From contig OX597815.1 of NCBI GenBank assembly GCA_951406725.2, positions 97,030,001 to 97,094,000 of the forward strand: a DNA stretch of 64,000 bases, given 5' to 3'. Both the position numbers and the translations under genes were made by a program. Origin of the DNA: Octopus vulgaris. Taxonomy: Eukaryota. Shown in pieces: positions 26,187 to 62,970 of this stretch. The notes beneath the pieces were generated by a model, which was not told the DNA's origin, made no database searches, and saw only the letters and a program-made list of their open reading frames with translations. Each line of letters opens with the position of its first letter. Within the stretch, counting starts at the first letter, position 1.

Positions 26187-26249
26187 AGATAAAACTCTGA
26201 GTTTCAGATGCCGAAGTGGAAATCCACAACACCATCTCTTCGGTTATCT
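26187..26249 (-). ncRNA. type I hammerhead ribozyme motif (inverted pLTR copy)
   Basis: Exact reverse complement of 27569-27631. Confidence 0.7.
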
Positions 26250-26369
26250 GGCTATTTGAAAACGTTATGAAAAAATACCGTTAAAAATGAAGGGAAATTA
26301 CTCTGTTATAACTCTTATACTAAGAGTTATACTATAACTCTTATAACTGTTATACTAAGTCCGAAGTAT

Positions 26370-27374
26370 AACTTCGGACTTAGTATAACTATAGACACTA
26401 ACCTGACGGTTGTCAATTTCTTAGACGTTTCCTTAGATCTTAATAATAATATTTATAAGCCTTATAGGAAGCCCAATGATAGACTAAGTTATATTAATGT
26501 AGGTTCATGCCATCCCCCTATAGTATTCAAAAATTTAGTTAAAAATATTAGTAAGAGGATTTCTAGCCTCTCATCTAATGAGGACATCTTCAATAGCGTT
26601 GCCCCAGTTTATAATAAAGCTTTAAAAGATAGTGGTTTTAGCGAAAAAATAAAATATACACCTATCACCAGCCCAACAATAAGGAAAAGGAATAATAGAA
26701 ATAGGAAGGTCATCTGGTTTACGCCCCCTTACTCACCCGAGGTGGCCTTCAATATAGGTAAATATTTCCTAGCACTGATAGATAGACATTTTCCAGTTAA
26801 CCATGCTTATAGGAAACTCTTCAATAGACACAATTTAAAAATTAGTTTTAGTTCAACTACCAATTTTAAAAACATAATCAATCATAACATACAAAAAACA
26901 CAAGAAGAAAACAGCTGTTCATGCAGGAATAAAGAATTGTGCCCGCTAAATGGAGCTTGCATGTCCAAGACCATCATATATGAAGCTACCGTAAACTCTA
27001 TAACCACTAAAGACACCGTTTCGACGAAGAAATACGTGGGCCTGACAGAGGGTAATTTCAAGGCCAGGTTCAATAACCACACTTTGAGCTTTAGGCACTG
27101 GAACAAAAGAAAAGCGACACAATTATCCAATCATATTTGGTCTTTAAGAGATAAAGGTGGCGATTATAACATACAATGGAAGATTTTGGCCAGATGTAAG
27201 CCCTATACTAACGGCAGCGGAAGGTGCGGTTTATGCGACATGGGGAGATGGCTTATCTGGAAAAGAAGCTTAGACCCTACCCCATGTCTAAATACAAGGA
27301 CAGAGCTTTTCGGATCATGCCCACATGTGACTAAATTTCTGTTACGTTTTTGGTCCCCTAAAGAAAACGGATAG
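26370..27374 (+). CDS. PLE reverse transcriptase C-terminus/thumb plus GIY-YIG endonuclease (partial, ~334 uninterrupted codons)
   Basis: Frame is open upstream of the listed ORF: FGLSITIDTNLTVVNFLDVSLDL...YKPYRKPND...SCHPP...RKVIWFTPPYS...IIYEATV...YVGLTEGNFKARFNNH...CGLC...LNTRTEL..SCPH; no start codon because the element is truncated. Confidence 0.9.
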   Translation, partial: NFGLSITIDTNLTVVNFLDVSLDLNNNIYKPYRKPNDRLSYINVGSCHPPIVFKNLVKNISKRISSLSSNEDIFNSVAPVYNKALKDSGFSEKIKYTPITSPTIRKRNNRNRKVIWFTPPYSPEVAFNIGKYFLALIDRHFPVNHAYRKLFNRHNLKISFSSTTNFKNIINHNIQKTQEENSCSCRNKELCPLNGACMSKTIIYEATVNSITTKDTVSTKKYVGLTEGNFKARFNNHTLSFRHWNKRKATQLSNHIWSLRDKGGDYNIQWKILARCKPYTNGSGRCGLCDMGRWLIWKRSLDPTPCLNTRTELFGSCPHVTKFLLRFWSPKENG

Positions 27375-27568
27375 AACATGCTTTCTGTGTTATGTCCCAA
27401 GAAGATTTTATATATTTTTATATATTTTTATATATTTTTATGTATTTTTATATAATTTTTATGACGAAAAATGCGAGCGATGTATAAGTACGCAGGCAAA
27501 GCAGAGTTATAACAGAGTAATTTCCCTTCATTTTTAACGGTATTTTTTCATAACGTTTTCAAATAGCC

Positions 27569-27631
27569 AGATAACCGAAGAGATGGTGTTGTGGATTTCC
27601 ACTTCGGCATCTGAAACTCAGAGTTTTATCT
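27569..27631 (+). ncRNA. type I hammerhead ribozyme motif in the PLE pseudo-LTR (variant core)
   Basis: Stem I AGATAA/TTATCT; core CCGAAGA; stem II GATG...CATC with inner GTGG/CCAC hairpin; extra T before GAA; palindromic stem III ACTC-A-GAGT; GUU cleavage triplet. Confidence 0.72.
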
Positions 27632-27787
27632 TGACTACCGAGTAATGTAACATATTGTATAGATAAATTTCCTCTATTTACATAATATTGAGGTCTCTTT
27701 CTTTCTTTTGTTATCTTACCGTTTTATCAATATATATATATATATATAGTTATAGATGCATAAATATATATGTATATGCATATATGG

Positions 27788-60245: not shown

Positions 60246-60595
60246 AGTCCTACTATGATAATAATTTTTTTCTGTTTTTAATCTACACATTCGAGTTACG
60301 TCTATTTCCAAATCTTTGTATTTTGAAAGTTTCTACGTTTCTTTTAGAGAAGAAATGTCATCTGTCGGTATTGATGCATCGATGAGAAAGCATTCTTTCA
60401 TGGTAATCTCAGACAACTATATCCAGCCTATATACCTAAACTTCTCTATCTGTGTGTATTGGCATATTCCAGGGTGTGGTTGCTTTCCCATTTTCTGTGC
60501 CATTTTCTGGTGTGTGCCTCTACCATCTTCTTTCTGTTGTTATTCCTTAGTGTTCGCACAGTTTTTCAGTTACTTAAAAATTGTAACTTAAAAGC
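60245..60595 (-). pseudogene. restriction-like endonuclease (PD-D/ExK) domain of an R4/Dong-like retrotransposon
   Basis: Manual translation: WNMPIHTDREV*VYRLDIVV...CFLIDASIPTDD..LKET*KLSKYKDLEIDVTRM..LKTE..IIVG. Confidence 0.8.
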
Positions 60596-61000
60596 TGATC
60601 ATGTCATTCCATCAACGTGTGGACGCTAGTTGCTATCGTTCCAGAAATTTCTCCCTGGAATTTCACTCTGATTGATTTTCTCTATAAACAGCTACTTAGG
60701 GTTTCTGTGTTGAGTAGGCCGAAATTCTTTCTCAGAATGTGTAACAGGGCTAAAACTGCATTTGATTGACTCGTTTGGTTTCATTTACATATAAATATTA
60801 AAGCATTAAGGCTGTTTTCAAAGCCGCGAAAGGTAGCGGTTTTGGTGTATATTAATAGCGAGTTTAATAACACTTTAGATTATGACAAGTCGGCTGCGAA
60901 CGGAAATAAATAATGCATACATATATATCTGTCTCCGCGCGCACGTGTGTACGTAATTCTCTGCTTGTACCTATGTGTGCATATATGTACGTATGAAAGA

Positions 61001-61790
61001 GCGCCATTTCTGCTCTACTGGTTATTCACTACAGCATAGTCTTCTCTTTTCACTGTTTATCTCCTCATAGGTTCAACTCCTCACCTCTCTTCATCTGATA
61101 CCTAATTCCTCTCCATTCCTACCCACCTCTCCTCTCCTCGGCACCTACTTCCTATCTTCACTCGTACCCACCTTCTCTCTTCATTGATACGCCCTCCATA
61201 CTCCACGCGACACATCCCCACCACTACAAATCCCCACCCCAGGCACCAGGCCGCATCACCACTCCCCTACGCGACAAACCACCATATCAGCACACCACCC
61301 CACAGCACTCTCCACACCCTTACAATGACCAAGTCCCAGTATCCCCACCCCACGCCATCATCTTCACACCTACAAATTATCATCACACGCCCACACACCA
61401 TCATTGATACACCCACACATTACAGACGCACAAACACACACACGCAAACATCGACACACGTCAAAGTCAGTAGCACCTATCCATACACACACGCACGCAC
61501 GCACACATTCTCCGATACACACACGCACGCACACATTCTCCGATACACACACGTACGCACGCCTTTGTTTTGGGATCACAAATACTTTATTGTCTCCCAT
61601 TCTTTCTGACTTTCCTCTCAGACCTTGTCACCATGCTTGATCGTTAAATTCACACGCTTTTTATTCCTTCTGTTGAAGAGCATAGTCTCGAAACGTAAAA
61701 ATTTTCCTCATTTCCCCGAGCGTCAAATTAATACACCTGCCTATTGTTCATACACGTAACTTCGTTTTTTGTTGTTCTGTAAATTTCAAT
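61001..61790 (+). mobile_element. Neptune-like PLE 3' fragment (EN C-terminus, CA-rich UTR, hammerhead tail)
   Basis: RHFCSTGYSLQH matches RHFSSTTRSLQY in the partner copy; tail 61660-61790 is the inverse of 61845-61970. Confidence 0.75.
61666..61701 (+). ncRNA. minimal hammerhead-like motif, variant core CUGUUGA
   Basis: CCTT-CTGTTGA-A-GAG-CATAGT-CTC-GAAA-CG-TA-AAAA; stem I weakened. Confidence 0.5.
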
Positions 61791-61844
61791 TATATATATA
61801 TAAGTGCGTGTGTGTGTGTGTGTGTGTGTGTATGTGTGTGTAGT

Positions 61845-62970
61845 GAGAATTTACAAAAAACAAAAGATGAAGACCGATGTGTAAACAACAAACATATGTA
61901 TTAGTTTAACGCTCGGGAAGTGTGAAACACTTTTACGTTTCCAGCCTACGCTCTTCGACAGAAAGGAACACACAAATAAACAGGTAGAGAAAATAAAAAA
62001 GGTTTAGTGGCTAGCGATCTATCATGGCGAATGCCGGACAGAGGGATCTCAAAGAAGAGTTAAGCAGAAGGGACATAATTAAGCAGTAGTGATCCCAAAA
62101 CCTGGTGCGCGTACGTATATATGTGAGATCGTGTATGTGCGTGTGGAATGGGGCTGGTGATCTTGACGTGTGCTTCTTTGCATGTGTACGTGTGTGAATG
62201 ATGGTGTAGTTTCTGGGAAGTGGTCAGTGCTAGTGTGTGCGGGGTAGTGTGACGTGGTGTGGTATGGTATGGTGGTGTGTGGTGTGTTGGTGTGTGGTGT
62301 ACTGGTATGCTGGTGCTTGGTGTGGTGTGGTGGTGTTGGAGTGTGGGGAAGCGAGAGTGGGGAAAGAAGAGTGGGGTCTAAATGATGGTGTGGGGTGTGA
62401 TGGGATGTATAAGGATATTGATGTTGGAATGTGTAGGGGTAGGGTAAGGGGGGGCGACGGATGGAGAGGTGGAAGGAAGAAGGTGGGTAGAAGTTACGGG
62501 AGGAAGAAGGTTCCAGAGCAAGAGAAAAGAGGTGGGTGGGATGAATTAGGTGTGAGAGGAAGAGAGGAGCGAGGAGGAGGGTTCGATGAAGGAGAGAGGA
62601 GATTTGAACCCATGTGGCCCAAAGGAGAGAAGAGAATCCCTGCTCATGGCGAAAACAGGAGACCGAATGGCCCCTATGCAAGGACAACCCGAAGACAGAC
62701 AAGTATTGTAAAGAGCGTGTGGTAGAGCTGAAATGGCGCGAGACCACGGTGTCGTTGCCGAGTCAGATGTCTCGGAGGTTTTCTGCGAACCGGTCAGCCA
62801 AGCGGCGGCCAATTTGAACGATATATAGAGAAGGACAGAGAGAGCAAGAGATGTAGTAGATGACGTTCCTAGAAGTGCAAATAAAGGAGTCAGTGATATG
62901 ATAGGGTCGATGATGGATGCCTGTGAGGAGGGGGTTTTGGAGAGGTATGGGTAAGTTCTCTACTGTTGCA
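61845..62970 (-). mobile_element. Neptune-like PLE 3' fragment with GIY-YIG endonuclease
   Basis: Minus-strand translation: DSFICTSRNVIYYISCSLCPSLYIVQIGRRLADRFAENLRDI*...VSRHF (VIY...CxxC...YIG(Q)TGRRLxDRFxEH motif). Confidence 0.88.
61930..61965 (-). ncRNA. minimal hammerhead-like motif, variant core CUGUCGA
   Basis: CTTT-CTGTCGA-A-GAGC-GTAG-GCTG-GAAA-CG-TA-AAAG; one mismatch at the base of stem II. Confidence 0.55.

Follow-up and report, generated by a model that had tools for sequence, protein, structure and literature searches.

Minimal hammerhead ribozymes (min-HHRs) are reported to be massively present in genomes, mostly as single copies and sometimes as opposite-strand pairs, and in vitro to show no activity as monomers and little as dimers (PMC4209133). 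Dimer cleavage of the hammerheads carried by Penelope-like elements (PLEs) is also treated in a review (PMC6765202). For the Hydra clade of PLEs, the published hallmarks are RWK, DKT, a CxCx5C linker, and CxxC and CxH around a conserved E and N (PMC8557442); the supplement of the same work gives an octopus family, Hydra-1_Obim, insertion into (TA)n and 26 Hydra hammerhead rows. Recently active PLE families are reported from an octopus genome (PMC13282606), in a text in which the word 'ribozyme' does not occur. Here we analyse 64,000 nucleotides of Octopus vulgaris (assembly GCA_951406725.2, contig OX597815.1, positions 97,030,001 to 97,094,000, forward strand), hereafter called the window, in which seven hammerhead motifs occur: A1, A2, B1, B2, C, D1 and D2 (Table 1). 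They are real but ordinary PLE relics of the described kind, in new families.

We consider it likely that the motifs belong to PLE 3' ends which probably cut their own RNA in cis, as dimers in head-to-tail copies; the leftovers seen here are predicted to be silent. An earlier sequence-only reading had proposed type I hammerheads of PLE pseudo-long terminal repeats (pseudo-LTRs), with a palindromic helix III and built for dimers, a reading that our analysis supports. Judged by their sequences, A and D are linked to PLEs through adjoining coding remnants; homology to the D tails points to the same origin for C, and architecture does so for B. The stem III ACTC-A-GAGT, the (TA)n targeting, the inverted copies and the dimer dependence are already published (Cervera 2014; Craig 2021), and the core variants U4C and A6U of PLEs may be in print as well.

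Element A and its Hydra-clade relatives

Four of the seven sites (A1, A2, D1 and D2) are not the solo tails they had been taken for. A1 and A2 form one insertion, since the arms that bear them are inverted and nearly identical around a stop-free frame (26271-27374, 367 codons). TA arrays flank this element A on both sides. The frame has 31 homologues, all of them longer (602-765 aa, 38-52% identity), and is collinear with 20 full-length ones bearing the YRDDG motif of the reverse transcriptase (RT). Its Pfam GIY-YIG match lies below the Pfam cut-off (E=0.028). Three Hydra hallmarks are present, CSCRNKELC (CxCx5C), CGLC (CxxC) and CPH (CxH); RWK and DKT stand in the homologue consensus, in the N-terminal part that the truncated window copy does not retain. 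By these sequence features, and by comparison with reference Hydra sequences by eye, element A is a 5'-truncated Hydra-clade PLE, and its left arm is the 5' inversion of the truncated insertion. The hairpins of the junction filler at 26316-26370 are perfect, as repeated template switching would leave them, and the reading frame happens to run through them open.

Element A is like the described Hydra clade in many respects: a C-terminal GIY-YIG domain, the CxCx5C and CxxC/CxH motifs, a unit below 3 kb, a (TA)n target, an inverted 5' copy, a one-sided tail and a sense hammerhead about 200 nt past the stop. The stem III of Penelope-3_HM is identical to that of element A, and ACTC-n-GAGT is found in 5/26 of the Hydra rows in the PMC8557442 supplement. 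Similarly, Penelope-13_HM has an inverted 5' copy and a hammerhead on both strands. Hydra-1_Obim agrees with element A at 19 of 24 residues over one stretch compared by eye but carries another hammerhead, and A is a distinct family. In A2, a 6-bp stem I, the core CCGAAGA, a 4-bp stem II with one U bulging out on its 3' side and the stem III ACTC-A-GAGT can be recognized. Compared with the described Hydra elements, stem II is longer and bears the extra U, and the core departs by U4C from the CTGA common to all 26 rows listed.

The fold itself can be followed in relatives from other organisms. Among 78 loci, 66 have at least 150 nt downstream of the open reading frame (ORF), and a sense hammerhead lies behind the ORF in 46 of them, an antisense one in three. 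We retained 47 non-redundant motifs, chosen by core letters alone. Stem I reaches at least 3 bp in 43 of these, whereas shuffling gives 5.2 on average and 13 at most. Of 107 inner pairs in stem III, 95 are Watson-Crick. Paired cells amount to 88.9% against 59.9% after shuffling, a value reached by none of 500 shuffles, and two-sided changes number 170 against 50 in shuffled sets, slid controls being far lower. The palindrome stays while its letters vary, which is the pattern that dimers require. Covariation across copies is strong in these 47 Hydra-clade relatives, and on this comparative evidence the hammerhead fold of the Hydra relatives is real. U4 is kept in 46 of the 47; C4 is found in one (L052). 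The copies at L052:1323(+), with CCGACGA, and L045:2464(-), with CCGATGA, are sisters and belong to a different Hydra-like family, one whose core has C4. On this sequence evidence, U4C turns up repeatedly in the clade, though at low frequency.

Family A also occurs outside the window: 74-84% of its words were found in 20 public runs, which cover nine organism labels and 11 studies. In the four runs examined closely (labels A, B, D and H), all as contigs, identity to the window copy is 99.5-99.7%, with 4-5 differences over 1.0-1.35 kb each. The same four differences appear in all four runs and are thus private to the window copy. All four are non-synonymous, and one replaces a conserved endonuclease Glu by Gly, so that the window copy of element A is probably dead. 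None of the four runs differs at the U4C position, which makes U4C the state of the family. In three runs, contigs show loose ends at 26371; the element continues upstream there, which places the truncation point at 26371. In run X1, a contig of 2,619 nt passes from the tail, at 27720, directly into the 5' part of the element, and its ends overlap by 30 nt; it corresponds to a head-to-tail family-A unit of 2,589 nt. X1 and X19 also contain diverged pieces of 56 nt that cover the A motif in its 3' half. The spread of family A may reflect horizontal transfer, or else activity that is very recent in close relatives. At the flanking repeat, three of the four runs have diverged contigs and X13 has none; such a hole in cover proves nothing, and we do not claim horizontal transfer.

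A second, very decayed Hydra-like remnant lies at 36241-37413(+), with weak collinear RT and endonuclease pieces (hidden Markov model domain E values 0.004-0.03). No hammerhead was seen behind it.

Motif letters and families B, C and D

The sequence-only reading gave correct coordinates and letters at all seven sites, and the stem III strings ACTCAGAGT, ACGATCGT, ACGT and ATGT as they stand. Its count of seven minimal hammerheads holds in that all seven motifs are in place; none is fully canonical. The core CUGANGA...GAAA...UH is intact in B2 and C, carries one change in four sites (U4C in A1 and A2, A6U in D1 and D2) and is missing in B1. A stem II closing on the core folds in A1, A2 and C; D1 does not fold it on its own, D2 lacks the closing pair and B2 has none on the core. 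Helix III is palindromic at six of the seven sites and decayed in C.

B1 and B2 are 88.5% identical over 96 nt. B1 is cut inside the motif, which is the outcome that 5' truncation gives. B2 combines perfect core letters with its 8-nt palindrome, a feature that, together with the missing core-closing stem II, sets it apart from the min-HHRs of PMC4209133. The hammerhead of C (CTGAAGA with an added A, 4-bp stems II and I) fits the published min-HHR consensus (PMC4209133), except for the lost palindrome, stem III being decayed to ATGT.

The D1 core reads CTGTTGA with an extra A, over a stem I of 2 bp; that of D2 reads CTGTCGA, also with an extra A, and with a G10.1-G11.1 mismatch. A6U, common to both copies, does not occur in the part of the PMC4209133 alignment compared. 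An alternative register, TTGAAGA/TCGAAGA, was rejected for D: stem I fails in it and the alignment to C favours CTGTYGA. The stop-free part of D2 has 577 relatives at E<=0.001. Over its broken frame, D2 shares 53% identity with P0032, a protein in which GIY-YIG is accompanied by a CX4CxxC linker; the Neptune type is defined in PMC8557442 by a GIY-YIG domain preceded by CX2-5CxxC. D2 itself keeps no recognizable linker or RT; on the basis of this resemblance, it is probably the remnant of a Neptune-type PLE. Looking up P0032 gave no locus, and the motif patterns of B and D no match, in prokaryote and viral collections that are ill-suited to animal repeats.

The tails of C and D are homologous (alignment scores 72-76, null maximum 53-57), so that the four repeat families first counted may be told either as three lineages or as four families. 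The association of all motifs with microsatellites is found at five of the seven sites: a TA, TG or CA array lies within 110 nt downstream there, against a 7% background, in sites that are not independent, and no array comes nearer than 1.3 kb to the site at 33838. The facing pair D1/D2 (61660-61970) would form an irregular hairpin of about 130 bp on either strand, a possible substrate for adenosine-to-inosine editing or small RNAs.

Table 1. Features of the window related to the hammerhead motifs; cut sites and the insertion target are predictions.
Feature	Position	Strand	Motif	Remarks
(TA)35 array	26091..26160			Directly left of element A; probably the target of its insertion
Inverted pseudo-LTR copy, element A	26150..26315	-		164/166 identical to 27503-27668
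Hammerhead A1	26187..26249	-	26187-26249	Same sequence as A2; cut expected after 26193; custom model E=0.01
Junction filler	26316..26370			Short fold-back hairpins between inverted arm and truncation point
3' half of Hydra-clade PLE ORF	26371..27374	+		RT thumb, CxCx5C linker, GIY-YIG endonuclease
Pseudo-LTR, element A	27503..27720	+		Tail 27669-27720 on this arm only; then (AT)9
Hammerhead A2	27569..27631	+	27569-27631	Predicted cut after 27625; custom model E=0.01
B1, family B tail, 5'-truncated	33802..33913	-	33838-33913	Keeps just the GAAA-ACGATCGT-A half; CUGANGA core absent
B2	35081..35202	+	35081-35166	All core letters intact; stem I of 5-6 bp; palindrome of 8 nt; then TA/TG array
C, solo tail of ~230 nt	58455..58683	-	58563-58597	Minimal hammerhead
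D1, 3' untranslated region and pseudo-LTR remnant	61003..61788	+	61666-61701	Hammerhead-like; ~0.79 kb shared with D2, 78% of aligned columns
TA/TG array	61790..61841			D1 and D2 point into it from opposite sides
D2, 5'-truncated PLE remnant of ~1.15 kb	61844..63014	-	61930-61965	Hammerhead-like; broken GIY-YIG frame 62613-63014

Covariance models recover the motifs unevenly. Rfam, which the sequence-only reading had advised to consult, gave no match to a hammerhead family with E<=10 when four local regions were scanned, which covered six sites directly and A1 via its identical twin; window-wide, the 150 of 247 matches listed hold no hammerhead, only microsatellite and microRNA noise. The custom model that it also advised, which we built from the 47 hammerheads of the Hydra-relative loci, finds A1 and A2 (Table 1), B2 (E=0.33) and C (E=7); B1, D1 and D2 are absent from its list for the window. 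A strict descriptor (CTGAnGA core plus adjoining stems) finds no site in the window. With one core mismatch allowed, five sites appear, three of the seven motifs and two unrelated ones.

Several other candidates were considered. The sequence at 24414-24484(-) has a perfect CTGATGA, a 4-bp hairpin, GAAA and a stem I-like closure, without cleavage triplet. It was rejected in spite of E=0.004 in the custom model, no U16.1-H17 being present ahead of stem I, and is likely a chance match or a long-decayed hammerhead. Candidates at 30768-30803 and 1344-1398 were also rejected.

Proposed mechanism and rival explanations

According to the available descriptions, PLE reverse transcription would begin at the 3' end and usually halt early (PMC8557442, PMC11167929). 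With such early halting, hammerhead-bearing 3' ends would accumulate in TA/TG arrays, and they would often carry an inverted copy at the 5' junction, the anatomy seen here. On a tandem or pLTR-ORF-pLTR transcript (pLTR, pseudo-LTR), two same-strand hammerheads could swap strands via their palindromic stem III, and the pair would cut after GUH. The window copies, truncated or decayed and with no nearby same-strand partner of the same family, would fold back on their inverted twins, as computed.

This last point can be given in figures. A2, B2 and D1 each have an inverted copy 0.2-1.4 kb away. The predicted twin duplexes reach -281 kcal/mol for A2, -133 for B2 and -111 for D1, against -7.4, -10.0 and -1.7 kcal/mol for the stem III self-duplexes of A, B and D. 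In minimum-energy folds, the inverted twin takes up 63 of the 63 nt of A2 in base pairs, and 32 of 37 nt in the case of D1; for A2 and B2 the antisense twin is transcribed first. Thus, trapping of the + strand motifs by their twins is predicted to be much stronger than pairing with a dimer partner.

A number of observations weigh against the interpretation of the motifs as PLE 3' ends that cut their own RNA as dimers. The five one-mismatch sites compare with a shuffle control (n=40) of mean 1.4 +/- 1.1 and maximum 5, which puts the motifs hardly above chance at the level of the window. Statistically, the motifs alone are weak and the case for their reality depends on context. Moreover, the top rank in the custom model goes to the likely chance match at 24414-24484, above all seven sites. 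For family B, no ORF link to PLEs was found in the window, so its PLE origin is suggested by architecture. The cyclic contig of X1 cannot separate tandem DNA, pLTR-ORF-pLTR and a circle, all of which give such a contig, and that X1 is an RNA run is a guess. The long-range folds leave aside co-transcriptional kinetics, and the D1 ribozyme is made before its antisense twin. Finally, U4C is reported to lower hammerhead activity (PMC3088659), which concerns family A as a whole, and the anole PLE hammerhead needs protein for cutting, its mutants still being inserted in vitro (PMC11167929). Taken together, the activity loss by U4C and the dispensable PLE hammerhead imply that RNA cutting may matter little.

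From there it is a short way to the idea that the motif is a weakened or protein-dependent ribozyme, or a structural or ribonucleoprotein element, and that these elements move without cutting. Family A is young, as judged from its few differences in four runs, yet carries U4C; A6U is common to both D copies; and, besides the results just cited, no RNA-seq ends were reported at the anole site (PMC11167929). We nevertheless regard this explanation as unlikely, given the near-constant U4 of the Hydra relatives, the strong covariation of their stems and the fact that U4C is tolerated by a viroid in vivo (PMC3088659). The same source describes A6C as slow. A further alternative takes the tails of B and C not for truncated PLEs but for short elements of the retrozyme or SINE (short interspersed nuclear element) type, non-autonomous and spreading on their own; it appears quite unlikely to us. 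Neither B nor C adjoins an ORF remnant, and animal retrozymes are derived from PLE pseudo-LTRs and exist as monomers (10.64898/2026.07.22.740005); non-LTR retrozymes share with the window motifs the type I fold, the short palindromic helix III and the PLE origin (PMC7229834; 10.64898/2026.07.22.740005). But their units are in tandem, whereas none of the 66 rows of tandem arrays in the window covers any motif, and A and D are joined to coding remnants. C shares homology with the tails of D, to which an endonuclease remnant is attached, and the end of B1 within the motif is consistent with 5' truncation.

The sequence-only reading had gone further, in proposing that, if the window is a + strand intron, lone intronic hammerheads stay silent until an RNA of the same family pairs via stem III and cuts the host pre-mRNA. 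Such a trans-activated switch finds some ground in the family specificity of the stem III self-duplexes (-7.4 kcal/mol for A-A and -10.0 for B-B, cross pairs between -1.1 and +1.0) and in the full-length family-A unit of X1, a probable RNA run. It is also favoured by the precedent of satellite hammerheads, for which cleavage in trans has been suggested or demonstrated in vitro (PMC2837043), and by the depletion of retrozymes from introns in Xenopus (10.64898/2026.07.22.740005). We nonetheless hold the switch to be very improbable. No exon was found, by tests that are weak: none of 84 frames, mostly taken from the 315 non-repetitive ones of at least 45 aa, reaches the Pfam cut-off, a search that small exons can escape; eight crude splice-site candidates are unconvincing; and there is no strand skew in the window. 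The best-looking exon candidate, frame 52-192(+), has no homologue. Furthermore, the three + strand motifs are each defective (U4C in A2, no core-closing stem II in B2, A6U and the 2-bp stem I in D1) and each accompanied in cis by an antisense twin, and even covalent dimers are reported to cut poorly (PMC4209133). In its extended form, derepressed family-A RNA would cut pre-mRNAs that harbour lone copies, as a transposon-sensing switch over thousands of PLE tails in which U4C and A6U limit the background; this we find hardly credible.

Neighbouring repeats and meaning of the locus

Remnants of other mobile elements lie around the motifs: a broken mariner at 25047-25933(-) (Transposase_1 E=1e-13, HTH_48) and a broken Tc1-type transposase at 56875-57613(+) (HTH_Tnp_Tc3_2). 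A dispersed repeat with many copies of 68-84% identity occurs at 2890-3450, 11603-11773, 19602-19723, 19986-20103, 34254-34428 and 46706-47183, one copy thus sitting between B1 and B2; it is presumably an octopus SINE. At 34-192(+), a stop-free frame of protein-like composition has no Pfam match and no homologue.

As it is, a described class gains from this locus one young family of the Hydra clade and one decayed family resembling Neptune, which carries little weight. The trans switch, if true, would give dispersed ribozymes a role at the level of the host. Truncated PLEs with inverted ends would, through this geometry, keep the ribozymes that they carry silent in cis. Beyond this, a recently mobile family with a fixed U4C offers specialists a natural test of the need for cutting by PLE hammerheads, a question left open in the published accounts (PMC8557442, PMC11167929).

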